Shown: positions 21,961-40,254 of the stretch, in pieces | Layout of the letters: each line of letters starts with the position of its first letter | Position numbering within the stretch: position 1 is the stretch's first letter | Source: a virus | Lineage: Duplodnaviria; Heunggongvirae; Uroviricota; Caudoviricetes | IMG/VR virus record: IMGVR_UViG_2778261631_000002 | Length of the DNA stretch: 64,000 bases | Direction: 5' to 3' (one strand) | The notes under the pieces: model-generated | Databases searched by the model: none | Seen by the model: the letters and a program-made list of their open reading frames with translations, nothing else | Told to the model about the DNA's origin: nothing | Program-made: the position numbers and the translations under genes

Positions 21961-22959
21961 TTATCCGTTACCTCGCGACGGTTTCTGCGTGATAAACGTC
22001 TCAAGCATCTTTTCCGCGATTGCCGACCAGGTGTGACACTGGACCTTTTCAGCATTTTTCACGCGATCAACGCGAGCAATAACCTCATCCCAATCAATCC
22101 GCGACTTGATAACCATATGGTTCACCAAAGCCAGGCGATCTGGCGGAAGGCAATCTGGCGGCGTTAATATCAACGCCCCACACATTGCCGCCTCAAGAAC
22201 AGTTAATCCAAGGCTTTCGGGATGCGTAACGATAAAAACGTCACTCTTACGCAATTCAGCTGCAAATTCGGTTGCTGGTACCGGCGTCCGTCTGTATGGA
22301 GTTACCGAAATATTCCCCGGATCAATGGTAACCAATCCGTCATCGGTCAACGTTCTGGCCTCATACGGAACGGTCAGACGCTGAAGGTTCATAAGGATAC
22401 TTAAGGAGTGATCAAACCCACTAACATCAAATGCAGCGTGGTCTACAAAAATACGCAGAACATCGTCTGTCTTGGTTTCCAGATGGAACAGTTCCTGATT
22501 CGCTGCCCATCCAACATGTTTGTTAAAGCGATTATGACGCTCTAACCTGCCGGGATTATCCAGGTACCGCCAGGTATCATCGCGGACAGTAAAAGTAATA
22601 TCGACTGGTGCCGAATCCAGCATAGAACCGTCATATACCTGGGCCACCCATCCAGAGAATCGGCGACACAGTTGCATGCCTATTTCCCTGGGTACCGTAG
22701 TAAAATACCTCAATCCTGGTGCCAAAATGGCCTTCGCAGAACATGCGGTCGCAGCAGTCAACACAGCTTCAACATAATCCTCCGGGCTTTCGACGCCAGG
22801 GGAATATGGACGATGGTATTGCAATGTTACCCCTGCCTCACTAAAGGCGCAGGCCAGGTTATAAGCCCACATTTCCGTATATGTTTTCACATCACTGATG
22901 GCTTCAAATTTTCGCCCAATGATCAGGATGTTCATCGGCTTTTCCTCATTCCATTGCAT
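21961..22959 (-). CDS. GT-B fold glycosyltransferase (GT4-like), 332 aa, at the position downstream of ban
   Basis: C-terminal ...VFIVTHPESLGLTVLEAAMCGALIL... resembles the GT4 nucleotide-sugar binding region. Confidence 0.55.
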   Translation of the reverse strand: MQWNEEKPMNILIIGRKFEAISDVKTYTEMWAYNLACAFSEAGVTLQYHRPYSPGVESPEDYVEAVLTAATACSAKAILAPGLRYFTTVPREIGMQLCRRFSGWVAQVYDGSMLDSAPVDITFTVRDDTWRYLDNPGRLERHNRFNKHVGWAANQELFHLETKTDDVLRIFVDHAAFDVSGFDHSLSILMNLQRLTVPYEARTLTDDGLVTIDPGNISVTPYRRTPVPATEFAAELRKSDVFIVTHPESLGLTVLEAAMCGALILTPPDCLPPDRLALVNHMVIKSRIDWDEVIARVDRVKNAEKVQCHTWSAIAEKMLETFITQKPSRGNG

Positions 22960-24329
22960 TAATAATCCTCTTGCCAGTCAGCACCGGCATAGTTATCAAA
23001 CCGTGAGTATTGGCCGTTAAAAGCCAATCTCACCGTGCCAATTGGGCCATTTCGTTGCTTTCCGATAATTACCTCGGCAATGCCCTTCATTTCGCTATCC
23101 GGGTGATAAACTTCGTCGCGATACAGAAACATGATCAGGTCTGCGTCCTGCTCAATTGCTCCTGATTCACGTAAATCTGAATTTACCGGCCGTTTGTCCG
23201 CACGCTGTTCAAGCGATCGATTAAGTTGTGACAATGCCACCACCGGTACTTGTAATTCCTTCGCCAACGCCTTCAGTGAGCGAGAAATCTCGGCAATTTC
23301 CAGCGTTCGGTTATCTTGCAGCTCGGGGACGCGCATAAGTTGCAGGTAGTCGATCATAATCATGCTCAAACCACCATTTTCTTTATAAATACGACGAGCG
23401 CGGGAACGTAGCTCTGTCGGCGTCAGGGCACTTGAGTCATCAATAAAAATATTCTGCTTGTCCAACAGAATCCCCATTGCGCCAGAAACCCGCGCCCAAT
23501 CCTCGTCGTTAAGTTGCCCTGTTCGAATACGAGTCTGATCAACGCGTGCAAGAGAAGCCAGTGAGCGCATCATCAGCTGGTGGCTCGGCATCTCAAGGCT
23601 AAAAACCAATACTGGCTTATCGTTACGGACTGCGGCATTTTCGACGAGATTCATCGCAAACGTAGTCTTCCCCATCGATGGGCGGGCGGCGACAATAATG
23701 AGATCGGACGCCTGAAGTCCTGCCGTCTTCTTATTGAGATCGGTAAATCCGGTATCAAGCCCCGTTACACCATCATGCGGTCGCTGAAACAACTCTTCTA
23801 TGCGAGATACCGTTGCATCGAGAATGCTGGCGATATCTTTTGGACCACTACCGCTCTTTTGTCGTTTTTCAGCTATTTCAAAAACGCGGCGCTCGGCCAT
23901 ATCCAGCAATTCATTGCTGCCCCGGCCATCCTGCGCATATCCAGCTTCAGCTATTTCATTTGCGACGGAAATCATTTCACGAACAACCGCGCGTTCACGA
24001 ACGATATCCGCATAAGCACAAATATTTGCCGCGCTGGGCGTGTTCTTTGACATCTCCGCAAGGTACGCAAAACCACCGGCGCGTTCTAATTTACCGTTCT
24101 GTTCAAGTGCTTCAGCAAGTGTTATCAAATCAATCGGTTTGCCATGACTTAATAACCTCTCCATCTCACTGAAAATTTCACGATGAGCACTGGTATAAAA
24201 ATCATCAGCAACTATACGATCTGCAACTTCATCCCAGCGGCAGTTATCAAGCATTAAGCCACCAAGCACAGCTTGTTCTGCACTAAGGGAATTTGGCATG
24301 GATTCAAGAGGGGATGCAGACATTAACAC
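22959..24329 (-). CDS. ban: Ban, DnaB-family replicative helicase (456 aa)
   Basis: DnaB N-terminal domain and RecA-like core with Walker A (GKT) and Walker B motifs; context matches P1 ban. Confidence 0.85.
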   Translation of the reverse strand: MLMSASPLESMPNSLSAEQAVLGGLMLDNCRWDEVADRIVADDFYTSAHREIFSEMERLLSHGKPIDLITLAEALEQNGKLERAGGFAYLAEMSKNTPSAANICAYADIVRERAVVREMISVANEIAEAGYAQDGRGSNELLDMAERRVFEIAEKRQKSGSGPKDIASILDATVSRIEELFQRPHDGVTGLDTGFTDLNKKTAGLQASDLIIVAARPSMGKTTFAMNLVENAAVRNDKPVLVFSLEMPSHQLMMRSLASLARVDQTRIRTGQLNDEDWARVSGAMGILLDKQNIFIDDSSALTPTELRSRARRIYKENGGLSMIMIDYLQLMRVPELQDNRTLEIAEISRSLKALAKELQVPVVALSQLNRSLEQRADKRPVNSDLRESGAIEQDADLIMFLYRDEVYHPDSEMKGIAEVIIGKQRNGPIGTVRLAFNGQYSRFDNYAGADWQEDY

Positions 24330-24609
24330 TCCATCCTGGTGTGCTGAATGTCAGATATAATCGGCATACTCAAATCACTCCTAACGATATGAGTCATCAC
24401 CAGAAAATCAGGATTAATGCGCCGGACTCTTCCCGGCTGTCACACCGAATCGCCAGGATGGTGAATCCCTTTACCCGAAAAACAACAAACGGTGGCTTGC
24501 ACATTCCGGCTACCTGGTTCGTTGCCTGAGCTAGGGGCAAGGTTCCCCCCTTTTAACGTCACCAGACCGCTAACGACGCATGTGCCAGACGCCGTGTTAC
24601 AACCAAATG

Positions 24610-24685
24610 TGGTGGCCCCTACCGGACTTGAACCGGTGACCGTGCGATTATGAGTCGCCAGCTCTAACCACTGAGCTAAGGGGCC
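24610..24685 (-). tRNA. tRNA with anticodon CAU (Met, or Ile2 lysidine-type as P1 trnI)
   Basis: Cloverleaf GGCCCCT acceptor, GTGG D-loop, CUCAUAA anticodon loop, TTCAAGT T-loop, CCA end; 76 nt. Confidence 0.8.
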
Positions 24686-24688
24686 GGA

Positions 24689-24796
24689 TTACTGTTTACT
24701 AAGTGCTTCAATGGCGCTAACAATGCCGCCTACAACTATGGCAACAATAATAATGAGAACAATTGGATACTTGTCAGCAAAATCCCAGAAGCCCAT
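24689..24796 (-). CDS. Small membrane protein, 35 aa (P1 tciC-like position)
   Basis: ATG overlaps the stop of the upstream small ORF (TGATG); hydrophobic core PIVLIIIVAIVVGGIV. Confidence 0.4.
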   Translation of the reverse strand: MGFWDFADKYPIVLIIIVAIVVGGIVSAIEALSKQ

Positions 24797-24960
24797 CACT
24801 GATCCTTCGAAGCTATTTTAAATATCGGCCATACCAATGTTACAGCTACTGCCACCAACGCCCCGTCCGATAAAACTGACAGGATTGTGCTGGTGAAATC
24901 CACCAGCACGGACAGCAAGAGAAAACCAATGGCGATTGCGATACGTGCCTTGCTTGTCAT
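24796..24960 (-). CDS. Small membrane protein, 54 aa (P1 tciB-like position)
   Basis: ATG overlaps the tciA stop (TAATG); hydrophobic segments. Confidence 0.4.
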   Translation of the reverse strand: MTSKARIAIAIGFLLLSVLVDFTSTILSVLSDGALVAVAVTLVWPIFKIASKDQ

Positions 24961-25394
24961 TACAGATAATCTTCCACACGAAGACCTAAACGACGGCCTA
25001 CTTCTTCCAGTACTTTGTGTTCTGCTGGCTCGATTTCACCGTCCGCTTCTGCAATTGTCAGCATGTTAACGAATACTTCTTCCGCTTCTTTTGGATCGTT
25101 TTTGATATCTTCAATTTCGCGAAGGATATTCATGCGACCAACACGGAAGCCAGCTTCCAGTTGCTCGGTAAAGCGGGTAATTGTTGCAGTAATTTCGTTA
25201 CCAAAATGACTAAGACGCGGATTAGAGCGGACAAGCTGATCAAGTTTCGCTGTTTCTTCTTTTTCGATTTCACCATCAGCGGCAGACACCAACAAACAGC
25301 CACCGATAATGGCCTCCATCAGATCGCGATTCTCAACTTTTTTCAGCTCTACTTTTGCAGAAGCGACTTTCTTGCCGAACAATTTACCGAACAT
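24960..25394 (-). CDS. tciA: TerB-like tellurite-resistance-family protein (144 aa)
   Basis: TerB-like repeats (...AADGEIEKEE... / ...EADGEIEPAEH...); lies upstream of ban as P1 tciA does. Confidence 0.65.
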   Translation of the reverse strand: MFGKLFGKKVASAKVELKKVENRDLMEAIIGGCLLVSAADGEIEKEETAKLDQLVRSNPRLSHFGNEITATITRFTEQLEAGFRVGRMNILREIEDIKNDPKEAEEVFVNMLTIAEADGEIEPAEHKVLEEVGRRLGLRVEDYL

Positions 25395-25418
25395 TGGTTA
25401 TCCCTCAATAAAAGTGAC

Positions 25419-25435
25419 ATATTTATTAGATTGCG
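25419..25435 (-). promoter_or_regulatory. Possible C1 operator-like site upstream of tciA
   Basis: Minus strand CGCAATCTAATAAATAT, 11/17 (the 3' part matches). Confidence 0.3.
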
Positions 25436-25559
25436 GTGCCGGGTTCCTCCCGGTGTCCTTTGGCTGGTTATCCACCGTGGACGTGGAAACAAGGAGAAAT
25501 AATGGACAGATATAACCATTTCCCCGCGTGCGCTTAGCCGCATTCACCGCAACGGAAAG

Positions 25560-26320
25560 AGCATTCTTGGTGGACCTGTAGATTGGGATATGAACCCGTT
25601 ACAGGAGAATGCTCTTACCTGTTACGTGCTCCGTTTCGTGGAGCTAACGGCGGGTGATCGGGCCGCACCAGACTGGACTTATTTCAGCGTTATGCTCATG
25701 CCAGAGAATCAAACTGTGATGGTCGGTGCTGAACTCCGACACAGGGTTGTAGCAAGCCCCGCAAAGCGCGCACTACTGTAGTTGCGGCACATCAGCCTGT
25801 GCATTCACCACAATGTTGAGAACACTGGTTGTCACGCTGCAACGCAACATTTATTCGTAGATTGGGATATGACCCCGTTACGCCAGTGTTCTCAACGTTG
25901 TAGTGCCGGTTACGGTTCCGGCCAGGCCTCTTCCTCAACGGGGTGTTCTCCATACGGACTACCGTTTATTGGTCGTTCCTGCGGTTTATGTTGTGAAGCC
26001 AGATGCTTATCTTCTGGTTGCTTCAAAGAGCTGCACTTCATCACAACGGTAAGAGCACTCGATGCATTTAAGCCAAGCCCCATAAGGGAGAATGCCCTTA
26101 CCTGTTGTGTTGTGATGACCGGTGCTGATCTCCGGCTTGCGGTTATTTCAGACTCTCACGGGCGTTTAATTGCCCCGCCGAACAGCTCTTTTCCGCAATA
26201 GCTGCAATGTCTTTCGCGCATCAGCCTGCGCATTCATCACAACGGTAAGGGTACTTCGTAGGGATTCGAACCCTCTGCCAAGCTCGGCGATCTCCGACGT
26301 CGCAAAATACCCTTACCTGT
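25560..26320. repeat. Non-coding block of repeats and long inverted repeats with tRNA-like T-arm fragments
   Basis: Recurring GTAGATTGGGATATGA(A/C)CCCGTTAC units (about 25566 and 25850); inverted repeats CACAACGGTAAGGG...CCCTTACCTGTTGTG enclosing GGGTTCGAATCCC (26240-26318) and similar at 26037-26112 and 25810-25900; no convincing ORF. Confidence 0.5.
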
Positions 26321-26325
26321 TGTGC

Positions 26326-26401
26326 TGGTGCCGATTAACGGACTCGAACCGCTGACATCCTGCTTACAAGGCAGGCGCTCTACCAACTGAGCTAAACCGG
26401 C
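26326..26401 (-). tRNA. tRNA-Thr (anticodon UGU)
   Basis: 76-nt cloverleaf GCCGGTTTAGCTCAGTTGGTAGAGC...CUUGUAA loop...GGTTCGAGTCC...CCA. Confidence 0.85.
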
Positions 26402-26403
26402 AT

Positions 26404-26479
26404 TGGCGATGGTGGATGGATTTGAACCATCGACCCGTTGATTAACAGTCAACCGCTCTAACCGCTGAGCTACACCATC
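26404..26479 (-). tRNA. tRNA-Asn (anticodon GUU)
   Basis: 76-nt cloverleaf GATGGTG acceptor, CUGUUAA anticodon loop, GGTTCAAATCC T-arm; 2 nt from tRNA-Thr. Confidence 0.85.
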
Positions 26480-26943
26480 ACTTGCCGGGTACGTCTCCGG
26501 CGAGGGCTTCCACCTCCGTATGCTTTTCGGCGCACCGCGCCCTGGCTGCAATTCGGTAACAGGGGATGCACAACCCTGGCTTCCAGCGTGATTAGCGCCT
26601 TCAGCATGACGGGATATACCCGTAAATTCGTGGAACTGTACCCAAAGTGCTGTTAAGCACCGCTGTTACGCTGAAAAGAAAACGCAACAGGAAAGGACGC
26701 TGACCAACAGATGGCCCCTTCTCGTTCATCTGGTTAATCACACCAGCGCCCTTACCTGTTGTGCCTCCCCGTTCCCTAATACACAGACGGGGACACTCTG
26801 CGGTCGATTTTTTGACGGGGGACGACTCATACCCCGTGGCATCTGGCTTCTTAGGCCGCTACCATCATCAGATCATCGTTTGCATTTACTTTAATGGTCA
26901 GTTTCTAAACCGCCGCAAAGTCGCTAACCATGACGAAAACCCT

Positions 26944-26970
26944 GAAAAAAACGCCCACCCGAAGATGGGC
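26944..26970 (-). terminator. Rho-independent terminator with UUCG tetraloop, about 180 nt downstream of dmt
   Basis: Minus strand GCCCAUC-UUCG-GGUGGGC followed by GUUUUUUU. Confidence 0.6.
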
Positions 26971-27144
26971 AAACTGGAAGCTCGTAACGCACTTCGGCGT
27001 TGCCACTTAGGCGCATGGTCAACCTGGCAACTCGGTGGTTTGTCTGGGAGGACTAGGCCCAGCCATGCTTACCGCCGCGCCTGTCGCGGCTAACAGCTAA
27101 ATCGCTCTATAAATCACGATTCATTGAGGCGATATTACACTAAT

Positions 27145-27161
27145 AAATTTATTAGAGCAAT
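27145..27161 (-). promoter_or_regulatory. C1 operator, exact consensus, overlapping the dmt stop
   Basis: Minus strand ATTGCTCTAATAAATTT, 17/17. Confidence 0.65.
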
Positions 27162-29416
27162 ATACCCAAAACGTCATGAGCTACACCTCGAGTGTCCCCC
27201 TTACAAGACACAGAACGTCTGGCAAAAAGAGGTTCCACTCTGAAGCCACTGTCATGATAAAGCTCTCTGATGTTTGGCGCGCCACTGTTAGTAATGAGAA
27301 CCTTTGCACCTCGACGATGAGCATCCGTCAACAGAGACACCAGGCGTTTTTGCTCTTCAAACTTAAAGTCATGACCGGAATAGTTCGTGAATCCCTCTGT
27401 ATTTGGAAGCGGTTCATACGGCGGATCGCAAAAGATGACATCTCCTTCTCCGGCAGCTTCAATCACCGCTGCAAAATCACCGCATACAAACTCAGACCGC
27501 CCTTCCGCACCGAGGAAGGCTTCCATCTCCTGTAATGGGAAATACGGAGTTTTATACTTCCCATAACCGACATTGAACTCACCGGCCTGGTTGTAACGCG
27601 TCAATCCGTTAAAACAATGTCGGTTCAGGAACAAAAACGCCGCTGCGCGATGTAAATCATCATAGACTTGTTTGTTAAACGCATTCCGTACTGCCAGGTA
27701 TCCTTCCTGTGTGTTGTAGTCCTGGAAGAAACGATGTGCCAGAGTGATAAGTGAATGCGCCTCGCGTTGCAGAGTCTTGTAAAAGTTAATCAGGTCAGCA
27801 TTCACATCATTTAGCAGATTTTCCTGGTATCCGGCATTCATGAAGACAGCTCCGCCACCAACGAAAGGTTCAATCAGGCGCTTCCCTTCTGGCAAATAGC
27901 GAAAGATTTGTTCCAGAACACCAAATTTTCCACCAGCCCATTTGAATATGGACCGTTCGAATTCTGCCGCTGGTTTAACTTTTCGCTCTTTTGTTTCACT
28001 TCCTTCTTTCTGCCGACATACGGCCTTAGTAATCCGATCGCCAATCCAGCGCATTACTGGTATTGCCATACTATTGCCGATCGCTTTGTAACGCGGTCCG
28101 TCAGCTGCAAGCATCGCGGCCTCTTCTTCGCTTAAATCTGGATAGTGATTGCGAAGATATGCCAGTTCATCTGAATTAACTTTTTTACGCTTTTCCGTCG
28201 GGATCAACGTATGCCCATCAGGAAAACCTTGCAGCCTTTCACATTCGACAGGGGTAAGACGGCGGACAGCTACTTCTGCGTTTCTTACTTCATAGCAAAC
28301 AGCTGTTGGATTTTTAGCCATTAGAGATGGTGAAGTATTCTTAGTTGCAGCATGTTGTGTACCGCTCATACGCTCAGGAAAAGCCAATGTAACAAGATGC
28401 TCATGGCTTTCTTGCTCACGTGCCCGCAATGTACCATGCCCTTCTGACCAAAAACCTGCTCCTGTGCTGCTAAAAACGGCAAGGTCAGTGGCATCTTTAA
28501 AATCTCTTGCCTTTACTGTCGATGCGGTTTCATCGTCAATATATTCCCCAAATGCCGCCATCCTGAAACCGTTTACGGCTTTCGTCGATTTCATACCGGG
28601 AGACATGCCAGCGTGTAGGCATGGATTTAGGCTTTCGCCACTGATTGCAGCGCCATTTGCAGTAATGGCGGAAGCGATTTCCTTCTTTTTTCGGCTCGGC
28701 GCAATATTCCGGCGCACGCCTTCGAACTCAAAAAGTACCGTTGCGGGATCGAGGTCTGTTCGAGCACTTGCGACAACAAACACGCGTCGGCGTCGTTGTG
28801 CCACTCCGAAGTATTGGGCATCAAGGATTCTCCAGGCCACCTTTCGCTGCGGTCCATAAATACAACCACACTGCGGCCACTTTGGAACATGGCAACCGGT
28901 TTTGCCATCCCACCGCCAGAACGCGTTGCTTTTTCCTGATTCAGGTCGATCACCTGGTTCAAATGGCACATCTTCTCCAGCCAATCCGGCAAGGAAACAT
29001 CCGAAGGCGTTATCTGCGGATGACAAGACTCCTGGGACATTTTCCCAGACGATAACGGCTGGTTTGAGAAATGACTCAGCCCGTTTGTCGTCAATTGCAT
29101 TTGCAAGCTCCACATACTTTAAAGTTAGCGCGCCACGCTCATCATCAAGCCCACCACGTAAGCCCGCGATACTGAATGCCTGACAAGGTGTTCCCCCGAC
29201 GAGCACATCAGGGGATTCGATTTCCCCAGCCAGGACTTTTTTGGCAAGTTTTGTCATGTCGCCAAGGTTGGCGACATGGGGCCAGCGGTGCGCAAGAACG
29301 GCAGATGGAAAAGACTCGATTTCAGCAAACCACACCGGACGCATACCCAACGGTTCCCAGGCAATACTCGCGGCTTCAATTCCACTGCAAACAGATCCAT
29401 AGCACAGCTCTTTCAC
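27152..29416 (-). CDS. dmt: Dmt, fused C5-cytosine and N6-adenine (Dam-like) DNA methyltransferase (754 aa)
   Basis: N-terminal C5-MTase motifs ([17 protein letters not shown]); C-terminal Dam-like region with DPPY. Confidence 0.8.
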
Positions 29417-30318
29417 TGCTTAGCCTCTCCACCAAGGGCATTTACCAGAGCATCAACCAGGCACGAAATTTCACTGGTCAACAGGAAGAAATCTGCGTCC
29501 AGTCGCTGCGCAACATCTTCACTATCAATATCAGAGTTCTGCTCAAGCAATTCATCCGCAAATTTGACGCTGGTAAGGCTGAAGTTATGGTCCAGTGTAA
29601 ATTTAATGCGGTTCTGCCAGTCGAGTGCCAACTTAGTGACGAGCTTGCCAGCTTCCAGGTGTGTGGAAATTTCATCGCTTCCCAAATCCTGCTTTTTCAC
29701 TCGGGCAATACCGCCATCCTCAAGCACTGCCTTAAGTTCTGCCGCATCCCCCATTTGAAATCCCTGTGGAGCACTACCATCACGTACCCAGTCGGTCAGC
29801 GTTAACTCAATGGGATTTTCAACACTTAGGGGAACAACAGGAAGAGAACCCAGAGATTTACGCATAAGCGCGAGCATATCCTCTGCCTGCCGCGCGCTGG
29901 CATTGATATAGATACGTTTAGTTGAACCGTCGTAGATCGCCTGGATAACAGAAAACTTTGAAAAAGCCCGTGGCAGAAGAGAATGCAGAACTTCGTCTTT
30001 CAGGGAGTCCTTCTCTGTTTTCTTCAGTTTACGCGCTTGTTCTTGCTCAAGTTTTTCAATTTTTTCTTGAATAGCTCGCTGGATAACCGGCGGGGGAAGA
30101 ATTTTTGTTTCGCGCTTTGCTTCAACAAGGATAAAACCATTTCCATGCATAGCGATAACTTCGGAATTATCACCAAATGGCGATACAAAACCGAACTTGG
30201 CCATATCCTGACTACCGCATGGTGTGAAAAGGATCATTTTCTTTTTATCTTCTAAGTCGGTCAGATCCGCCTCACGAGAAAGTTTATAAATAGTAATATT
30301 TTTCCAGTGCTTAAACAT
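29413..30318 (-). CDS. hrdC: RdgC homolog (recombination-associated protein), start taken at [13 protein letters not shown]
   Basis: High similarity along the length to E. coli RdgC (...[10 protein letters not shown]...[22 protein letters not shown]...LGGEA...). Confidence 0.75.
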
Positions 30319-30667
30319 GTTGTAACCCTTGAATATCAACCACAGAAAGCTCGTCTTTATAGAAAAAGGCCAAGTTGTGGCACCCCCTCGTTTGAGCGTA
30401 TGAGCTGGGACCAATTTCGTTCTTCCAGACAAATGGCTTCAAATCCGTACGGCGAAGCATAAAAACGCGATTTGTTCCGCTCTGATTCCCAATGAGGCAA
30501 AAGCCTTCTTTCACCTTGATAGCCTGCAAGTTGTCGAGTTCACCGCTGGTTACACGGCTATCGAACTCCTTGCGGCTTATTAGCTCCATCTGCATCTGAC
30601 GACTCCAAACAAATGCCCATTGAAGGGCGATGGCTGAATGGTACCGAAAACACGATATAAAAAACAA
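30311..30667 (-). CDS. Hypothetical protein upstream of hrdC (start uncertain, possibly the internal MQMELIS)
   Basis: First ORF after the C1 operator at 30667. Confidence 0.45.
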
Positions 30668-30683
30668 TATTTATTAGAGCAAT
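30667..30683 (-). promoter_or_regulatory. C1 operator upstream of the hrdC-dmt operon, in a divergent region
   Basis: Minus strand ATTGCTCTAATAAATAT, 16/17. Confidence 0.6.
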
Positions 30684-30764
30684 TTTGTAATAAGTAAACG
30701 CCATACAGACCACAAATAACCTAAGTTAAAATAACGAAAATCAGAGCAAATCCTTGGTGACGAC

Positions 30765-31049
30765 GTGGCAAGTATTGCAACAAAAGACAGCATTTGTTCG
30801 GGGCACGGAGGATTCCCATCCAGGCCTCCTGTAGAGAGTGAACCACTACTTAAAGTCAACGGAGTCGAAGTGTTAGTTGATGGTAAGCAATATGCACAGC
30901 ATACCGATGGAAACAGTACGCACGGTGGGCAAGCTATATCAACCAGGGCATGGTTTACCGTCAATGGTAAAGGGATCGTATGCGTTGGTGACCCTGTTTC
31001 ATGCGGATCTACCGTAGCGTCCGGAGACGGCCTGGTTCAGGTAAGTTAG
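30765..31049 (+). CDS. PAAR-like small Gly/Cys-rich protein (94 aa)
   Basis: ICSGHGG and VCVGDPVSCGS motifs resemble PAAR-repeat spike-tip proteins; tentative. Confidence 0.4.
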   Translation: MASIATKDSICSGHGGFPSRPPVESEPLLKVNGVEVLVDGKQYAQHTDGNSTHGGQAISTRAWFTVNGKGIVCVGDPVSCGSTVASGDGLVQVS

Positions 31050-31057
31050 GAGATATC

Positions 31058-31846
31058 ATGCTGGAAAAAGACTACCAGTTATCCGCATATAAAAAATTGG
31101 CCGCAGCCGGTGGGATGAAAACACCTGGTGCCATAACATCGGCACGAAACAGTGCTAACACGGCAAAACAGCTTGCAGAAGAATTGATCGGATTAATTTT
31201 GGATACAATTGTCTATCCCGACACTATTACCAGTTATGTTTCAACGATCAGAACAACCACAACAGGCTTAACGAACATTGTCGAACTGGCAACTAAGCAC
31301 GCGGACCTGTTGGCTGGTTATGCAGATCTGTCAATGCTGCTTCAACTCGATATTGGTTGGGATGTTTACTGCCGTGCTAATGAGCGAGAAGTTTCAGAAC
31401 TGCCGATCTCTATTGCCATTGGTGATGTGACTATTACTAAATCGCTTGAGGACGCTGTTAACGCGCTTAATACATCAAGTTTAGTCGCTGCTATGGGGGA
31501 GATTAACCAGACCCTTAACACTGGCTCAGGAAGCTCGTCAGGCTCTGGTTCAGGCGGCGGCACTGCCACTCCCCCACCAGCACTAACAGAAGAGCAAATT
31601 GAATCTCTGAAAGTAGCAACTGAACAGTTTGGGGTTGTTTTCAACCAGACAACAGCGCCCACAACTGCGTTACAACAGCAGTATGAACGAGCGAATGAAA
31701 GCGCCAACGTAGCCATAACTGCTTATAACCATGCTATCGGTACCGCGCTTGCGGAAGCATCAGCAAATAAGGCCAGCACAGCCAGCGCAGTTGCCGCTTT
31801 GGTTCCTGATTCTGTTCTTGATGAATTAAACAAAGCGGCACAGTAA
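31058..31846 (+). CDS. Hypothetical protein with Gly/Ser linker (about 262 aa)
   Basis: ORF starting at MLEKDYQ; GSGSSSGSGSGGG low-complexity linker. Confidence 0.5.
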   Translation: MLEKDYQLSAYKKLAAAGGMKTPGAITSARNSANTAKQLAEELIGLILDTIVYPDTITSYVSTIRTTTTGLTNIVELATKHADLLAGYADLSMLLQLDIGWDVYCRANEREVSELPISIAIGDVTITKSLEDAVNALNTSSLVAAMGEINQTLNTGSGSSSGSGSGGGTATPPPALTEEQIESLKVATEQFGVVFNQTTAPTTALQQQYERANESANVAITAYNHAIGTALAEASANKASTASAVAALVPDSVLDELNKAAQ

Positions 31847-31885
31847 CAAAGGACTTCATTGATAATTTTTCTTCAGGAGGAAGAC

Positions 31886-32308
31886 ATGTCATTCTTTTCT
31901 ACGTTAAAAACAGCTTTGTCTTTGAAGGAGAAACTTGCTGCTACTGGTGTTCTTGTTCTGATTTGCGCACTTGTTGGTGCTGGGTTTGCATGGGAACGTC
32001 ATCAGCTAAAGCAAGCCATGGAGAAAATTGGCAGTCTTGATCAGGCTGTTAAGGAACGTGATAAGTCAATAATGGATCTTAACCAGACCATTGAGACGAT
32101 GAACAAAGCAGAGCAACATTTTCACAGCCAGGAAGTGAAAAATGAATCAGAACAAGCCAAATATGCTGACAGGCAAATGGAACGAAAAGCTGAAGTTCAG
32201 AAACAACTGGTTGCGGCGGGTAATGTTCGCCAGCGTATTCCTGCTGACACTCAGCGGTTGCTCCGGGAGTCGATCAGCGAATTTAACGCCGACGCCGACA
32301 AAGGTTAA
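31886..32308 (+). CDS. Rz-like i-spanin candidate: N-terminal TM anchor plus periplasmic coiled coil (P1 ppfA-like)
   Basis: MSFFSTLKTALSLKEKLAATGVLVLICALVGAG TM segment followed by coiled coil; overlaps the lipoprotein gene. Confidence 0.5.
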   Translation: MSFFSTLKTALSLKEKLAATGVLVLICALVGAGFAWERHQLKQAMEKIGSLDQAVKERDKSIMDLNQTIETMNKAEQHFHSQEVKNESEQAKYADRQMERKAEVQKQLVAAGNVRQRIPADTQRLLRESISEFNADADKG

Positions 32309-32474
32309 CCACCCTGACCCAAAAAGTGCATTTATGTGCAGGATGCCAGAGTTTAGCAGTGAATATTTTGATGATCTGCCAGCGTATATCCTCGATACAG
32401 AAACGATGCTGATGGGGATTAACAGGAAGAATCGCAACGTTAATGATTACAACCGAGCTATTAGCGGTAACTAA
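32223..32474 (+). CDS. Rz1-like o-spanin candidate / membrane lipoprotein (P1 mlp-like), partly embedded in the preceding gene in another frame
   Basis: Lipobox LLTLSGCSG then a Pro/Thr-rich mature region; overlapping architecture typical of Rz/Rz1. Confidence 0.5.
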   Translation: MFASVFLLTLSGCSGSRSANLTPTPTKVNHPDPKSAFMCRMPEFSSEYFDDLPAYILDTETMLMGINRKNRNVNDYNRAISGN

Positions 32475-32485
32475 AAGGGATTTTT

Positions 32486-32878
32486 ATGTCTGATAAAGTA
32501 ACAGTAAAGCAAACTATCAACAAAGCGACTTCAATCTACAAAATTGAGCAAATCACTGTTGGCAAGCCAGGATCTGAACAATACCGTCGTGCTTTCGAGC
32601 TTGCCGATCAGCTTGGTTTAAAACACCCGGATTGCATTGAGCATGTATTTCCGACCTATGCTGATGAGCAATGTACTCATGTTCTTACCGAAGAGGATTT
32701 TTTCAGCACTGAAGAACGAGAAGGCGTTGATCGCTGTATTGGTGTGATTTGCTCTTCAGTGAGTTATGAGTTATTCCCTAATGTCCATGAAGATGGTGGT
32801 ATTGGATACCAATTCCTGTACGAAGGCGATGAGCTTAAATGTTATGAACATGGTCTTCTCATCGAAAGCATAGAATAA
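32486..32878 (+). CDS. Hypothetical protein (130 aa) upstream of the plasmid origin
   Basis: ORF with RBS; no recognisable motifs. Confidence 0.55.
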   Translation: MSDKVTVKQTINKATSIYKIEQITVGKPGSEQYRRAFELADQLGLKHPDCIEHVFPTYADEQCTHVLTEEDFFSTEEREGVDRCIGVICSSVSYELFPNVHEDGGIGYQFLYEGDELKCYEHGLLIESIE

Positions 32879-32892
32879 TACAGCTTCCTTCC

Positions 32893-32916
32893 AACCGGCT
32901 TTGTTGGCCGGTTTTT
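32893..32916 (+). terminator. Rho-independent terminator before oriR
   Basis: AACCGGC-TTTGTTG-GCCGGTT followed by TTT. Confidence 0.5.
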
Positions 32917-32919
32917 CAC

Positions 32920-33180
32920 TTATCCACATTATCCACTGGATAGATCCAATAATTAGGTCCATACAGATCCCAATTAGATCCATATAGATCCCTGATCGTT
33001 GCAGGCCGCGCCACGTCTGGCCTAGAAGTGTATCGCGATGTGTGCTGGAGGGAAAACGATGTGTGCTGGCGGGATAAAAATGTGTGCTGACGGGTTGCTA
33101 ATGTGTGCTGGCGGGATATAGGATGTGTGCTGACGGGAAAGCCTGGGTAGTTATCATCACTTATAAAAACTATCCACATA
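32920..33180. other. Plasmid origin oriR: tandem DnaA boxes, GATC-containing heptamer repeats, five 19-bp iterons (incC), distal DnaA box
   Basis: TTATCCACA / TTATCCACT at 32920-32937; five AGATCC-type GATC repeats at 32943-32997; iterons (G/A)ATGTGTGCTG(G/A)(A/C)GGG at 33038-33140. Confidence 0.8.
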
Positions 33181-33196
33181 ATTCGGAAAAAGTAAT

Positions 33197-34057
33197 ATGA
33201 ATCAATCATTTATCTCCGATATTCTTTACGCAGACATTGAAAGTAAGGCAAAAGAACTAACAGTTAATTCAAACAACACTGTGCAGCCTGTAGCGTTGAT
33301 GCGCTTGGGGGTATTCGTTCCGAAGCCATCAAAGAGCAAAGGAGAAAGTAAAGAGATTGATGCCACCAAAGCGTTTTCCCAGCTGGAGATAGCTAAAGCC
33401 GAGGGTTACGATGATATTAAAATCACCGGTCCTCGACTCGATATGGATACTGATTTCAAAACGTGGATCGGTGTCATCTACGCGTTCAGCAAATACGGCT
33501 TGTCTTCAAACACCATCCAGTTATCGTTTCAGGAGTTCGCTAAAGCCTGTGGTTTCCCCTCAAAACGTCTGGATGCGAAACTGCGTTTAACCATTCATGA
33601 ATCACTTGGACGCTTGCGTAACAAGGGTATCGCTTTTAAGCGCGGAAAAGATGCTAAAGGCGGCTATCAGACTGGTCTGCTGAAGGTCGGGCGTTTTGAT
33701 GCTGACCTTGATCTGATAGAGCTGGAGGCCGATTCGAAGCTCTGGGAGCTGTTCCAGCTTGATTATCGCGTTCTGTTGCAACACCACGCCTTGCGTGCCC
33801 TTCCGAAGAAAGAAGCTGCACAAGCCATTTACACTTTCATCGAAAGCCTTCCGCAGAACCCGTTGCCGCTATCGTTCGCGCGAATCCGTGAGCGCCTGGC
33901 TTTGCAGTCAGCTGTTGGCGAGCAAAACCGTATCATTAAGAAAGCGATAGAACAGCTTAAAACAATCGGCTATCTCGACTGTTCAATTGAGAAGAAAGGC
34001 CGGGAAAGTTTTGTAATCGTCCATTCTCGCAATCCAAAGCTGAAACTTCCCGAATAA
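33197..34057 (+). CDS. repA: RepA plasmid replication initiator (286 aa)
   Basis: Translation MNQSFISDILYADIESKAKELTVNSNN... is recognised as P1-type RepA; flanked by iteron arrays. Confidence 0.9.
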   Translation: MNQSFISDILYADIESKAKELTVNSNNTVQPVALMRLGVFVPKPSKSKGESKEIDATKAFSQLEIAKAEGYDDIKITGPRLDMDTDFKTWIGVIYAFSKYGLSSNTIQLSFQEFAKACGFPSKRLDAKLRLTIHESLGRLRNKGIAFKRGKDAKGGYQTGLLKVGRFDADLDLIELEADSKLWELFQLDYRVLLQHHALRALPKKEAAQAIYTFIESLPQNPLPLSFARIRERLALQSAVGEQNRIIKKAIEQLKTIGYLDCSIEKKGRESFVIVHSRNPKLKLPE

Positions 34058-34343
34058 GTGTGTGCTGGAGGGCAGCTGCATTTGAAAAATGTGCGCTGCC
34101 GGGAATGCCTGCCCATTTTCCTGTTTTTGGTGTGCGCTGGAGGGTTGCGCCACGCAGTTTGCCCAGACATTCCCTCCAGCACACATCTAACCATCCAAGT
34201 TTCCCTCCAGCGCACATCTAATCTTCTATCTTTCCCTTCAGCGCACATATTTGATACCAGCGATCCCTCCACAACACATAATTCAATGCGACTTCCCTCT
34301 ATCGCACATTCTGGTCCTGCATCATCCCTCCAGCACACATCTA
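34058..34343. repeat. incA copy-control locus: nine 19-bp iterons (three direct, six inverted)
   Basis: GTGTGCTGGAGGG-type repeats at about 34058, 34088, 34129, and CCCTCCAGCACACAT-type at 34170, 34201, 34232, 34263, 34292, 34325. Confidence 0.8.
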
Positions 34344-34450
34344 ATAGCCTCATCGCCATTTCTTTACGTGCAATAATTTGCGCACGAATCAAAATAAGTT
34401 GCACGTAGCAGAATCAAACGTACAATTCACTCATACGAAATGATAAGGAG

Positions 34451-35662
34451 ATGATGATGAAACGCGATTACGGCGGTGTCGGCACCATAGCTCTTCGTGC
34501 AAGCGCATTACTTAAGGCCATGAGTCAGGATATTGAAGATCAGCGCAAAGAGTTCAATCAGACCGAGTATTATCAGACGTTCACTCGTAACGCTGTGGCA
34601 AAGTTGCCGAAGCTGAGCCGCCGCATTGTGGAGCAGGCCATCAAAGAGATGGAAGATGATGGGTACCAGTTCAACAAGAAACAGGTCGGTAACGTTGAAC
34701 AGTACGCGCTGACCATCCAGAACGTCATTGATATCTATGCCCACCGTAAGATCCCAAAATATCGCGACATTCACAAATCGCCTTACGTTATTTTTGTCGT
34801 AAACCTGAAGGGTGGCGTATCCAAAACGGTTTCCACAGTCACGTTGGCGCACGCTCTGCGTGTGCATCAGGATTTACTGCGTCACGATCTGCGCATTCTG
34901 GTAATTGACCTTGACCCTCAGGCATCCAGCACAATGTTCCTCGACCATACTCACAGTATTGGTTCCATCCTGGAAACCGCCGCGCAGGCGATGCTGAACG
35001 ACCTGGACGCGGAGACGCTACGCAAAGAGGTGATTCGTCCGACCATCGTTCCTGGCGTAGACGTGATTCCAGCCTCTATCGACGATGGCTTTGTTGCCAG
35101 CCAATGGAAAGAGCTGGTTGAAGAGCATCTTCCCGGACAAAATCAGTACGAAATCCTTCGACGCAATATCATTGATCGTGTTGCGGATGATTATGACTTT
35201 ATCTTTATTGATACCGGTCCACACCTGGATCCGTTCCTGCTCAACGGTCTGGCGGCCAGCGATTTGCTGCTTACCCCTACCCCACCAGCCCAGGTTGACT
35301 TCCACTCAACACTGAAATATCTCACCCGTCTGCCAGAAATGCTGGAGCAACTGGAGGAGGAAGGCGTAGAACCGCGTTTAAGCGCCAGCATTGGTTTTAT
35401 GTCGAAGATGACCGGCAAGCGCGATCACGAGACATCACACAGCCTTGCGCGTGAGGTTTACGCCAGCAACATTCTGGACTCTTCTCTGCCTCGTCTGGAT
35501 GGATTTGAGCGATGCGGCGAGTCTTTCGACACCGTAATCAGTGCCAACCCGCAATCGTATCCAGGCAGTGCAGAGGCGCTGAAGAAGGCACGAACCGAGG
35601 CCGAGCGTTTCACTAAGGCTGTGTTTGATCGAATTGAGTTTGTTAGGGGTGAGGCGGCATGA
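34451..35662 (+). CDS. parA: ParA partition ATPase, P1/P7/pMT1 family but clearly diverged from P1 ParA
   Basis: Deviant Walker A NLKGGVSKT, ...ILVIDLDPQ...; alignable along its length to P1 ParA with many substitutions. Confidence 0.85.
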   Translation: MMMKRDYGGVGTIALRASALLKAMSQDIEDQRKEFNQTEYYQTFTRNAVAKLPKLSRRIVEQAIKEMEDDGYQFNKKQVGNVEQYALTIQNVIDIYAHRKIPKYRDIHKSPYVIFVVNLKGGVSKTVSTVTLAHALRVHQDLLRHDLRILVIDLDPQASSTMFLDHTHSIGSILETAAQAMLNDLDAETLRKEVIRPTIVPGVDVIPASIDDGFVASQWKELVEEHLPGQNQYEILRRNIIDRVADDYDFIFIDTGPHLDPFLLNGLAASDLLLTPTPPAQVDFHSTLKYLTRLPEMLEQLEEEGVEPRLSASIGFMSKMTGKRDHETSHSLAREVYASNILDSSLPRLDGFERCGESFDTVISANPQSYPGSAEALKKARTEAERFTKAVFDRIEFVRGEAA

Positions 35663-36624
35663 AAAAAATAGTTTCCCGTGGACGAGTGCTGGGCAAGAAT
35701 AGCTCCGAGTTTGCTCGCATGCTTGAAGGCAGTGAAGGCACCAAAACCTTTACCCTAAAATCTGGCCGCCAGGCTAAATTTTTGCTTACCGTTGTGCTGA
35801 GTGGTGAGATTGAGTCGCGCACGTTCGTTGACCCGGCAGTTAACGGCCGCGATCAGTCTCTGCTCACCCCTGAGTCGGTAAGCGATATTTCCCGCACCAT
35901 TAAATTGCAACAGTTCTTCCCGGCTATCGGTCGTATGGTTGGGGAGCGCATTGAGGTATTGGACGGATCACGTCGCCGCGCTGCGTGTATCTTCAATGAA
36001 ACGAAATTTGAGATTCTGGTGACGAAAGATGAGATCAGCCTGGCGGATGCACGCCAGCTGGCCATTGATATCCAGACAGCCCGCGAACACACCCTGCGCG
36101 AACTGGGTAAACGCTTCGAGGTTATGTATGGTAAGAGCATGACCAAAGAAGAGATCGCCCGCGCTGAGAACATTTCAAAGGCTAAAGTTACGCGCGCGTT
36201 CCAGGCGGCAGCGGTGCCGGATGAGATGATTGCTGTCTTCCCTGTTGCCAGCGATCTCGCCCTGCCAGATTACCAGTTACTGCTCCAGATCTCCGAGGAT
36301 GCCAACGCTAAAAGCGTGCCTATTGAAGAGCTGGTTGATACGGTGCGCGAACGAATTGCAGAGACTGAGGGCGCGAAAGAGGATAAAGCGAAGATACTGG
36401 CTATCTTCAAAGCGGAAAGCAAAAGCCTGAAGCCCGCGCCGGTTAAATCTGTGGTGGTTGAGAAGCTGCGAGACTTCTCTGACCGTCGCCAATATGCTCG
36501 AAAGAAGTCCGATCCGAAAAAACGGGTTGTCGCCTACGAGTTCTCCAGACTCCCGTCTGAAGTGCAAACTGAAATTGACGAAGCAATAAAAAAAATCATT
36601 GGGAAAATGTCTGCTGGGGAATAA
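35659..36624 (+). CDS. parB: ParB centromere-binding protein (321 aa), diverged from P1 ParB
   Basis: ParB box ...ILDGSRRRAA... and HTH region; start overlaps the parA stop. Confidence 0.8.
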   Translation: MKKIVSRGRVLGKNSSEFARMLEGSEGTKTFTLKSGRQAKFLLTVVLSGEIESRTFVDPAVNGRDQSLLTPESVSDISRTIKLQQFFPAIGRMVGERIEVLDGSRRRAACIFNETKFEILVTKDEISLADARQLAIDIQTAREHTLRELGKRFEVMYGKSMTKEEIARAENISKAKVTRAFQAAAVPDEMIAVFPVASDLALPDYQLLLQISEDANAKSVPIEELVDTVRERIAETEGAKEDKAKILAIFKAESKSLKPAPVKSVVVEKLRDFSDRRQYARKKSDPKKRVVAYEFSRLPSEVQTEIDEAIKKIIGKMSAGE

Positions 36625-36677
36625 TCCCGCTGGTGGGAGGTGGTGTTAGCCCCTCCCCTTCCTAAAATGTCCCGCAC

Positions 36678-36748
36678 CAATTTCATTGCTAACATTATGA
36701 TTTGCATGTGTTTTTTAGGAGAATTTCAGACTGAAATTCCCACGATTT
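36678..36748. other. parS centromere candidate: ParB box A heptamers around an AT-rich IHF-like core, with a variant box B
   Basis: ATTTCAT ... ATTTCAG-AC-TGAAAT-TCCCAC-GATTTAAC; same layout as P1 parS, but box B reads TCCCAC rather than the TCGCCA I recall for P1. Confidence 0.55.
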
Positions 36749-36812
36749 AACGCCTGCATTCACCGTCCACTTCCCCGCACAAAAAATTTAAAAAATTACT
36801 TTTCGCGAGAAA

Positions 36813-36837
36813 GTCAACAAGTGACTTTCAATAAAAT
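36813..36837 (+). promoter_or_regulatory. Candidate Lpa-dependent late promoter of the head/sheath operon (GTCAACAAGTGACT then TAAAAT)
   Basis: Motif shared with sites at 17109 and 49289. Confidence 0.4.
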
Positions 36838-36867
36838 CTCTTCCGAAAAGGGATTCACACAAGTGCC

Positions 36868-38595: not shown

Positions 38596-38621
38596 TCAGG
38601 GGAAGTTCTCCGTTTAACATA

Positions 38622-38640
38622 GCGCCCCCGTGCGGGGCGC
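38622..38640 (+). terminator. GC-rich stem-loop between the capsid and sheath genes (possible attenuator; no U-run)
   Basis: GCGCCCC-CGTGC-GGGGCGC. Confidence 0.3.
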
Positions 38641-38655
38641 ATAACAGGGAAAGTT

Positions 38656-40245: not shown

Positions 40246-40254
40246 GGGAATACA

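Follow-up and report, generated by a model that had tools for sequence, protein, structure and literature searches.

What is a block of repeats without protein genes doing beside the tRNA genes of a phage? The question is raised by a 64,000-nt stretch of caudoviricete DNA (IMG/VR record IMGVR_UViG_2778261631_000002; the window, at its full length), in which about 760 bp between a tRNA-Thr gene and the protein gene tciA (positions 25560–26320; the block) hold direct repeats, long inverted repeats and a tRNA-like fragment. We find that the block is made of four tandem units, each a hairpin of a covarying RNA family followed by a structured tail. With moderate confidence, we read it as an untranslated, structured leader of the ban operon of phage P1, in which tandem modules processed by host RNases would separate tRNAs, small RNAs and the downstream mRNA.

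The block lies inside the minus-strand ban operon of phage P1

Across positions 25300–27200, the window shares 99.6% identity with one P1 isolate and 99.3% with the P1 reference. The DNA is that of phage P1, and the block is part of its C1-repressed, minus-strand ban operon. Read along that strand, the order is Pban with the C1 operator Op72, a dicF-like leader with a terminator, a long hairpin (hairpin 0), tRNA-Asn, tRNA-Thr, the block, tciA, tciB, tciC, tRNA-Ile and ban. From Pban to ban, all features share the minus strand, both in the window and in the reference annotation (NC_005856), from which we take it that Pban drives ban. A promoter scan revealed no promoter-like sites within the block. 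With no internal promoter and this minus-strand gene order, the block sits untranslated within an early operon under repressor control, which also makes tRNAs.

A preliminary description, made from the window sequence alone, had reported repeated units, three long inverted repeats and a canonical T-arm here. The repeated units are a 25-nt direct repeat, GTAGATTGGGATATGA(A/C)CCCGTTAC, at 25578–25602 and 25857–25881 (24/25 identical). The sequence near 26608 that had been linked to it, ACGGGATATACCCGT, is indeed present at 26609–26623, but it is merely a small palindromic hairpin, loosely related to the repeat. The long inverted repeats are also present, although four rather than three fall in the interval (25548–25626, 25806–25905, 26042–26109 and 26238–26324), and a fifth lies upstream of the tRNAs (26683–26763). 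The T-arm, AGGGTTCGAATCCCT, reads on the minus strand at 26260–26274. Folded on that strand, the four block hairpins gave z-scores of −4.5 to −6.5, with none of 200 shuffles folding as well, and the whole 936 nt between tRNA-Thr and tciA gave z = −5.9. Two motifs from the hairpin arms recur in the window, with five and four occurrences where shuffles predict 0.39 and 0.18; an extra motif match at 35785–35801, inside a long open reading frame and with two mismatches, was treated as chance. The repeats, the inverted repeats and the T-arm are real and far beyond chance. The proposal that the block is non-coding is supported as well: its longest stop-free stretch, 139 amino acids, is not above shuffles (p = 0.08), and the frames of upl and plp, two genes annotated here in P1, are not kept. 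The preliminary description had not singled out the minus strand as the relevant one, nor the conserved domain that follows the hairpins, nor the presence of the same modules in lambda and many other phages.

The hairpins form a covarying RNA family

Each unit opens with a hairpin whose stem of ~20 bp follows one plan: a base CACAAC, a bulged A, ~13 more pairs, commonly with a U-U mismatch at the third, and a 3′ strand ending in GUUGUG. The apex is a hypervariable insert of 27–96 nt. We built a covariance model, R1, from the arms (CACAAC-A-GGUAAGAGCAUUG and CAGUGCUCUUUCC-GUUGUG) around a variable insert. Across 54 distinct arm pairs, 12 of the 19 base pairs showed changes on both sides, amounting to 65 cells versus 15.4 in shuffles, a count that none of 500 shuffles reached; the innermost three pairs of the hairpin base were invariant. 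Paired cells made up 93.6%, a percentage inflated by an alignment limited to hairpins in which 15 or more of the 19 pairs were in register, versus 33–61% with the partner columns slid. The double-change counts and the slid controls, which contained 6–17 double-change cells, are less affected by this selection; many of the sequences are related by recent transfer, so that the cells are not independent events. Median pairwise identity was 0.85 for the arms versus 0.49 for the inserts, which formed 44 clusters among 69 hairpins.

Strand asymmetry indicated the same orientation throughout. Of 81 unique family hairpins, 68 were more stable on the sense strand, and R1 scored window hairpins 3, 4 and 1 at 44.6–50.8 bits on the sense strand versus 23.2–35.3 on the antisense strand, and the lambda copy at 53.1 versus 33.5 bits. 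The nearest upstream long open reading frame was co-oriented with the hairpin in 88 of 104 contexts. The hairpins form a covarying RNA family under selection for pairing. This supports two of the roles first suggested for the block, that of structured regulatory RNAs and that of structures by which the tRNA transcript is processed, as do the two results described below, a homologue in the Qin prophage that coincides with an RNase III cut and a tail that resembles the small RNA STnc100.

In the window, all four block hairpins lie on the minus strand. Hairpin 4 (26238–26324) starts 2 nt after the CCA of tRNA-Thr and scores 48.6 bits with R1 (E = 6e-12; 30.4 bits on the plus strand; fold z = −5.8). 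Hairpin 3 (26042–26109) reaches 50.8 bits (E = 1e-12; plus strand 35.3; z = −5.8), and hairpin 1 (25548–25626), whose base carries the compensating changes CGUAAC/GUUGCG, 44.6 bits (E = 1e-10; plus strand 23.2; z = −4.5). Hairpin 2 (25806–25905; inverted repeat I1) has divergent arms of 23 bp and folds with z = −6.5. Upstream of the tRNAs, hairpin 0 (26683–26763), listed on the minus strand, is a near-perfect palindrome of ambiguous orientation, with a minus-strand fold of −45.9 kcal/mol (z = −5.6). Just before hairpin 1 stands a small minus-strand hairpin, CUCCACGAAACGGAG (25629–25643), which precedes family hairpins in many other phage contigs.

The inserts differ from unit to unit. That of hairpin 4 holds a small hairpin and the T-arm, whereas the two copies of the 25-nt repeat lie in the inserts of hairpin 2 (motif GUAACGGGGUCAUAUCCCAAUCUAC, 25857–25881) and hairpin 1 (25578–25602). 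The repeated 25-mer is a recurrent insert motif, a GGG-loop-CCC hairpin within a short outer helix, in which an A-U pair becomes G-C in other phages. Neither motif is universal among the family inserts; the insert is a payload site and not the part that defines the family.

A homologous hairpin coincides with an RNase III cut in the Qin prophage

Long intramolecular RNase III stems separate functional RNAs in the polycistronic transcripts of rRNA operons, of the early region of phage T7 and of the lambda N leader. The stems predicted for our family, with 19–23 pairs, one bulge and one mismatch, would be RNase III-substrate-type stems of about two helical turns. They differ from those examples in that the sequence of the base is conserved across unrelated phages and encloses a hypervariable cargo of 27–96 nt; cleavage here is a prediction.

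The Qin prophage of Escherichia coli K-12 carries a family hairpin at 18174–18257 of locus L133 (R1 31.7 bits, E = 9e-7), in the untranslated stretch between ydfC and dicF, that folds with the same layout of 7-bp base, bulge and mismatch. The 5′ end of the 190-nt form of the DicF RNA in the Qin dicBF operon is made by RNase III, and its band is gone in an rnc mutant (Ragunathan and Vanderpool, bioRxiv 10.1101/2023.04.14.536235; Faubladier et al. 1990). Primer extension located the Qin cut "between positions 813 and 814". Counted 190 nt back from the annotated DicF 3′ end (L133 18435), the cut falls at 18246; counted to 813/814 from a start ~7 nt after the −10 element that we read in the dicA–ydfA spacer, it falls at ~18250–18252. 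Both estimates lie in the 3′ arm of the family hairpin (18239–18257), ~6–12 nt from its base.

The likeness of the two operons goes beyond this hairpin. Positions 26999–27031 of P1 are homologous to the hairpin upstream of DicF, and after DicF the Qin sequence GAUGUGGUGAAUGCGG...GGCACUGCAUCAC, directly before dicB, is the STnc100-like element that precedes tciA in P1 and in phage D6. Both operons combine the hairpin family with a repressor-controlled promoter, an untranslated leader with small RNAs, an STnc100-like 5′ untranslated region (UTR) and a first gene. Qin, however, has one hairpin and no tRNA genes, whereas P1 has four or five tandem hairpins after two tRNAs. Cleavage has been demonstrated for Qin alone, and the published Qin work describes the cut and not a conserved hairpin family.

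The hairpins are followed by tails with a tRNA-like layout

Following the hairpin, the tails of units 4, 2 and 1 run GUUGUG-RUG-AAU, a GCGCA-GGCUGA-UGCGC-type hairpin, a variable middle and a CCGG-loop-CCGG hairpin, directly followed by CAY-CACAAC. Their minimum-energy folds share one layout, with the closing helix GUUGUGRUG/CAYCACAAC; GUUGUG is thus contested between the base of the hairpin and the closing helix of the tail. In the closing helix, the variable triplets can pair in 66 of 68 cases, and ATG occurs with CAT in 4 of 5. The tail hairpin loops GCUGA and UCAGC are complementary and might kiss, although one side of this match was fixed by the search seed.

On the minus strand, the tail of unit 4 (26109–26243) is closed by GUUGUGAUG/CAUCACAAC and contains, in its minimum-energy fold, the hairpins GCGCA-GGCUGA-UGCGC (26216–26231) and CCGG-AGAUCAGCA-CCGG (26119–26135); it is 96–98% identical to a segment of lambdoid early-left leaders. 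That of unit 2 (25714–25814) is closed by AUUGUGGUG/CAUCACAG, with the hairpins GCACA-GGCUGA-UGUGC (25787–25802) and UCGG-AGUUCAGCA-CCGA (25723–25739). The tail of unit 1 (25430–25553; closing helix UUGCGGUG/CACCGCAA) is an STnc100-like 5′ UTR that ends ~35 nt before the start codon of tciA. Three of the four units have such a cloverleaf-like tail. The tail of unit 3 (25906–26047) is of another type, with the hairpins GAAGC-AA-CCAGA...UCUGG-CUUC (25995–26024) and CCGG-AACCGUAA-CCGG (25906–25921), and its first part is shared with the pL leaders of P22-like phages and with Sashavirus. Hairpin 3 and the unit-4 tail together make up a 196-bp unit that, when the insertion/deletion was mapped, proved to be missing from the P1 reference genome.

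Against Rfam STnc100 (RF02076), the unit-1 tail scored 38.0 bits (E = 5e-6), below the gathering score of 47, over model positions 31–147 of 206; the remaining tails gave no match. The aligned part covers the closing helix and the terminal hairpin of the model, whereas its 3′ part is absent from P1. Phage D6 gives the same match, and STnc100 neighbours likewise include TerB-like genes, Q and tRNA genes. The layout of the Rfam model, with a closing helix, a first hairpin, a variable middle and a flush terminal hairpin, is also that of the folds of tails 4, 2 and 1. STnc100 and PasD are prophage small RNAs, and PasD has Hfq targets found by ligating and sequencing interacting RNAs (RIL-seq) (Zhu, Shabalina and Storz 2026, bioRxiv 10.64898/2026.05.13.724894). 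STnc100 RNA has been detected in vesicles of Shiga toxin-producing E. coli (STEC). In the literature that we searched, neither STnc100 nor PasD was described as tRNA-like or as coupled to an RNase III hairpin upstream of it.

How tRNA-like are the tails? Between 25380 and 26325, ARAGORN called no gene, and no match to the Rfam tRNA model RF00005 (gathering 29 bits) appeared up to E = 10. The resemblance lies in the junctions. Among 130 unique family tails, 89 have no unpaired base between the terminal hairpin and the 3′ strand, and in 75, 2–3 unpaired bases follow the 5′ strand, like the acceptor/T-arm and acceptor/D-arm junctions of tRNA, respectively. One relative goes further: directly after a family hairpin in Yersinia massiliensis (L138, 1255–1382, minus strand), an element scores 40.3 bits with the Rfam tRNA model, over its gathering score. 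Its acceptor, UGUGGUA/UACUACA, corresponds to the closing helix of the family, its D and T arms are canonical, and 60 nt replace the anticodon arm. Canonical D- and T-type arms also occupy the tail slot in an Enterobacter genome (L181) and in a contig, probably contaminated, of a metagenome-assembled genome (L154).

The inserts show a second kind of resemblance. Of 83 family inserts, 11 contain a strict T-arm-like hairpin, versus 0.29 expected, and in 8 of these 11 it lies 3–7 nt before the 3′ arm, where stacking on the stem as in tRNA would occur. The hairpin 4 T-arm, with its GTTCRANYC-type loop, is among this kind; it adjoins an acceptor-type helix, whose 3′ arm follows 6 nt further on. The insert of the Y. 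massiliensis family hairpin holds two T-arm-like hairpins.

Genuine tRNA genes lie close by: in five cases a tRNA gene begins 6–11 nt after a tail, and in seven, including P1 tRNA-Thr, a hairpin begins 2–22 nt after a tRNA. An arrangement in which the hairpin arms enclose a full tRNA was considered and discarded, since ARAGORN, run on all loci, gave tRNAs only beside modules and never inside them. The D6 version of the block contains an 87-nt tRNA-Ser(UGA)-like gene (L005, 1163–1249) 6 nt after a tail; its best Rfam match is tRNA-Sec at 43.1 bits, under the threshold of 47, and the depositors noted that tRNAscan-SE gave no amino acid. The window tails are tRNA-like in layout without being tRNAs, and probably also tRNA-like in ancestry.

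Phage RNAs of this general kind have precedents. The C4 RNAs of P1 and P7 and the CI RNA of P4, which are matured by RNase P, and the stable RNAs C and D of the T4 tRNA cluster are tRNA-like phage RNAs matured by host tRNA enzymes, and some such RNAs are co-transcribed with tRNA genes. The Rfam scan gave no sequence or model match to C4 in the P1 block, and RNase P action on the P1 domains is hypothetical. YrlA (RF02553), which has been reported in phages, joins a tRNA-like module without an anticodon loop to a long helix; in P1 units, by contrast, the RNA ends are on the acceptor side, the sole YrlA match (25.6 bits; gathering 69) fell on genuine tRNA genes, and no Ro-binding motif was found.

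Modules are widespread in phages of Enterobacterales

Pieces of the block matched 110 phage records, in which the matching DNA is mostly unannotated and intergenic. Among them are lambdoid phages, P22-like phages (where the match in the pL leader lies just upstream of an N-like gene), Sashavirus (between head genes) and Ackermannviridae of Klebsiella. At least 120 viral contigs contain an exact 25-mer of the tail. The lambda copy (44787–44862) stands 8–9 nt after the terminator tR′ and upstream of gene S, and GUUGUGCUG/CAGCACAAC, a compensatory variant, forms the closing helix of its tail; many family copies begin a few bases after an intrinsic terminator. In a set of species-representative genomes, genuine chromosomal copies were confined to Enterobacterales, where a dozen genera carry them, among these Yersinia, Rahnella, Pantoea, Pectobacterium, Kluyvera, Klebsiella, Enterobacter and Citrobacter.

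Matches outside Enterobacterales were set aside as lambda contamination or as chance 20-mers without a partner arm. In 21 or 22 of the 70 species-representative matches (L135, L137, L139 and ~19 others), the DNA is 98–100% identical to the lambda late leader and stands on short, low-coverage contigs; such leaders in contigs of Pseudoxanthomonas, Kitasatospora, Paenibacillus and others are evidently assembly contamination.

The module is an accessory one. Neither motif search nor R1 found a family hairpin in positions 22500–40751 of the HK022 record; the put antiterminator RNA of its pL and pR leaders, considered as a counterpart, does not contain the module, and none was found in the late leader of the DLP12 prophage of K-12. 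Even among P1 isolates, the number of units differs by one 196-bp unit.

Rfam scans of the block and six related loci returned no family for the hairpins; matches to mir-142, ALIL, Plastid-ycf2, tmRNA and YrlA were rejected as weak or as lying on tRNA genes. Further observations concern the related loci. Klebsiella phage K751 (Ackermannviridae) has more than 2.6 kb without an annotated gene (L006, 470–3108), with family hairpins at 981–1023 and 1501–1584. The same stretch holds anticodon-less tRNA-like pieces, such as GGCGAAG...CTTCGCCA with D- and T-type arms at ~1128–1196, that neither ARAGORN nor Rfam called. Lambdoid phage mEp460 has, to the right of its immunity region, a match to the small RNA isrK (L003, 4980–5137; 67 bits, above threshold), and after it a match to C4 antisense RNA that the locus end truncates.

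A processing model for the leader and its alternatives

Our model builds on what the sequences show of the modules: where they lie and on which strand, that they are non-coding, how their units are built, that they belong to one covarying family and how widely they occur. Once C1 repression is lifted, the minus-strand leader would be transcribed and its long hairpins would fold during transcription. Host RNase III, acting as at the homologous Qin site, would cut the hairpins mid-stem, separating tRNA-Asn and tRNA-Thr from the tciABC–tRNA-Ile–ban RNA and releasing short hairpin RNAs, for which a role in trans is conceivable. Each cut would also free GUUGUG, and the tRNA-like domain could then close, a putative refolding step. 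RNase P and RNase E may, more speculatively, trim the tRNA-like domains further, and the last domain would remain as the 5′ UTR of tciA.

Besides the selection and relatedness of the aligned hairpins mentioned above, several observations weigh against this reading. An intrinsic terminator at 26945–26970 lies between Pban and the block, and transcription into the block needs read-through. R1 missed hairpin 2, which we placed in the family for its layout and the canonical tail behind it, and the R1 match to hairpin 0 is on the plus strand (28.6 bits, E = 8e-6), opposite to the operon. The window tails do not score as tRNA and are without canonical D and T loops, and an encoded CCA after the closing helix is not enriched (11 of 130 domains). 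The Qin cut was placed by fragment length and by our own reading of the promoter rather than from a published nucleotide, and RNase III cleavage in P1, argued by homology to that site, is fairly likely. The module is dispensable, and its conservation could stem partly from spread driven by recombination rather than from function.

Among the alternatives, the one that survives best extends the leader reading. The units may be cassettes for trans-acting small RNAs, in which the variable parts, at the hairpin apex and in the tail middle, carry seeds for pairing with mRNAs of host or phage, as has been proposed for PasD and STnc100, and the hairpin and tRNA-like frame serves as a scaffold for processing and stability, a possibility that we entertain only tentatively. 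It draws on the STnc100 resemblance of the unit-1 tail, on the description of STnc100 and PasD as prophage small RNAs, with Hfq targets for PasD and STnc100 RNA in STEC vesicles, and on the excision of DicF, a genuine small RNA, from the homologous Qin leader; a conserved frame around a hypervariable payload and the near identity of the unit-4 tail in P1 and lambdoid phages fit it as well. Internal units, however, are without an intrinsic terminator or U-tail, the usual Hfq-binding feature, we found no targets or expression data for the P1 units, and the position of the last tail directly before the start codon of tciA (in Qin, dicB) suits a cis-acting 5′ UTR at least equally well.

The leading idea of the preliminary description, that the block is a functionless graveyard of decayed tRNA genes and duplicated tRNA flanks, now seems unlikely. 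What such a block would resemble is seen after tyrT in E. coli, where tRNA-linked 178-bp repeats (rtT RNA) lie in tandem downstream of tRNA genes, are co-transcribed and processed, and in some cases carry fragments of tRNA 3′ ends. Those repeats are host-specific, whereas P1-type modules are phage-borne and shared across genera, and the likeness is one of description only. Part of the idea stands: the canonical T-arm of hairpin 4, the enrichment of T-arm-like hairpins in the inserts, the cloverleaf-like tails, the relative that scores as a tRNA without an anticodon arm, and the real tRNA genes in neighbouring slots in P1, D6 and other contigs all point to tRNA. Decay, however, would not keep pairing through compensatory changes or hold the arms at ~85% identity across Ackermannviridae, Sashavirus, lambdoid and P1-like phages; elements conserved in this way across distant phages are maintained rather than decaying. 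Moreover, the hairpin arms are not tRNA-like, and no unit of the window was called a tRNA or pseudo-tRNA. A further early suggestion, remnants of integration at tRNA 3′ ends, found no support.

Could the modules instead act as DNA, as selfish miniature inverted-repeat elements or as recombination linkers that swap tRNA genes or morons, with RNA structure as a by-product? Terminal inverted repeats around a variable cargo, a mosaic presence (lambda with the module, HK022 without), changes in unit number by recombination between arms and the many copies that begin just after an intrinsic terminator would all be expected of such elements. We nevertheless find this improbable. G-U pairs make the strands unequal (68 hairpins more stable on the sense strand vs 13), R1 scores ~15–20 bits higher on the sense strand, the modules share the orientation of upstream genes in 88 of 104 contexts, and the conserved tail domain is not palindromic; we noticed no transposase partner or target-site duplications, although no systematic search was made.

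Still less probable is a boxA-like Nus-factor site (consensus UGCUCUUUCC) in the 3′ arm of the hairpin, shielding a 1.7-kb untranslated, tRNA-bearing leader from Rho termination. A run of 8 bases in the family consensus recurs in rrn boxA (UGCUCUUUAACAA), the modules always lie in long untranslated leaders, and several copies per leader would permit reloading. The motif is paired in the stem, however, and varies freely with its partner, for example as UGCAAUUAUC, UGUCAUUUCC and GGCAGCUUUCC; this covariation indicates selection on pairing and not on a boxA sequence, and in place of a single-stranded, conserved GCUCUUUA-type sequence we found only the paired, covarying motif. The 5′ arm is transcribed first and would sequester boxA as it emerges, and the lambda copy stands in an operon already antiterminated by the Q protein.

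Very unlikely, finally, is the reading of the P1 reference (NC_005856), in which the block encodes Upl and Plp on the plus strand, opposite to the operon, from predicted promoters: although the window has plus-strand open reading frames of 63 and 139 amino acids, the latter no longer than chance allows, the 196-bp insertion/deletion shifts the last 40 residues of Plp to another frame (in the window and in OP279344), Ro157c2YLVW has lost the start of Upl and spreads Plp over three frames with an in-frame stop, Upl has no match in D6, the C-terminus of Plp is antisense to tRNA-Thr, the palindrome through which Plp is read makes it match its own reverse strand, the homologous DNA of other phages is mostly unannotated, and published knock-down of plp and upl by CRISPR interference gave no phenotype, marking them as non-essential. 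As far as the sequence can tell, upl and plp do not behave like genes, and the block is probably not protein-coding.

Neighbouring features of the ban leader

The features that flank the block complete the leader as we read it. Pban and Op72 occupy 27132–27163 on the minus strand (inverted repeat I2), with an exact operator 17-mer, ATTGCTCTAATAAATTT, at 27145–27161; at the homologous place, NC_005856 annotates Pban and Obanab. Another C1-operator-like sequence, with ~12 of 17 bases as in ATTGCTCTAATAAATTT, lies at 25408–25430, just upstream of the ribosome-binding site of tciA, and forms repeat D8 with the Pban operator region as its partner.

The dicF-like leader (26945–27031, minus strand) begins with the hairpin at 26999–27031, and a short RNA ending in the terminator found at 26945–26970 by terminator scan follows. 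"dicF-like region" is the annotation of NC_005856, and a side-by-side comparison with Qin agrees on the position. The terminator-ended short RNA (terminator GCCCATCTTCGGGTGGGCGTTTTTTT) stands at the position of DicF in Qin and has a body unlike DicF; it may be an analogue of DicF peculiar to P1 and directed at different targets.

Downstream, also on the minus strand, a small CCGG-loop-CCGG hairpin (26485–26500), found by pattern search and of the type of the terminal hairpin that closes the tails, lies 5 nt upstream of tRNA-Asn(GUU) (26404–26479). tRNA-Thr(UGU) (26326–26401) follows, and the two ARAGORN calls score 74.5 and 72.9 bits with the Rfam tRNA model. The first protein gene after the block is tciA (24960–25394, minus strand; TerB-like), identified from the list of open reading frames and the P1 record annotation. 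In the published P1 RNA sequencing, we found only a remark that upl and tciB gain reads in a dksA host, and no RNA-end data. The tRNA at 24610–24685, which ARAGORN calls tRNA-Met(CAT), is tRNA-Ile2 in the P1 reference, with a CAU anticodon that reads Ile after lysidine modification.

Implications for phage leaders and their RNAs

Parts of this picture are already known, namely the RNase III site of the DicF precursor, the "dicF-like" remark in the P1 annotation, and STnc100 and PasD as prophage small RNAs. Our searches of Rfam and the literature found no description of a covarying hairpin family common to P1, lambda, Qin and many other phages, of the coupling of such a hairpin to an anticodon-less tRNA-like domain, or of upl and plp as RNA structure.

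Speculating further, we can imagine, as an outside chance, that phages of Enterobacterales, lambda and P1 among them, share an unrecognised class of arrays of tRNA-frame cassettes, in which a sequence-conserved RNase III hairpin, coupled through GUUGUG to an anticodon-less tRNA-like domain, forms with it a host-processed scaffold that presents hypervariable payloads. These might serve as regulatory seeds, or as decoys of host factors that read the shape of tRNA, such as tRNA-targeting defence nucleases and maturation enzymes. If this were true, STnc100, PasD and the DicF precursor would be special cases of one design.

The finding would turn two long-standing P1 "genes", upl and plp, into non-coding RNA structure, and it would unite the DicF site, STnc100, PasD, the lambda late leader and the tRNA regions of P1 and Shiga toxin phages in one family that can be modelled and searched. 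An RNase III cut that unlocks a tRNA-like fold would explain how long, untranslated, tRNA-bearing leaders are processed. Set in a conserved frame, the hypervariable inserts are candidates for carrying RNA functions aimed at the host in P1 and lambda, and the interest of these modules would rise further if the variable payloads prove functional.

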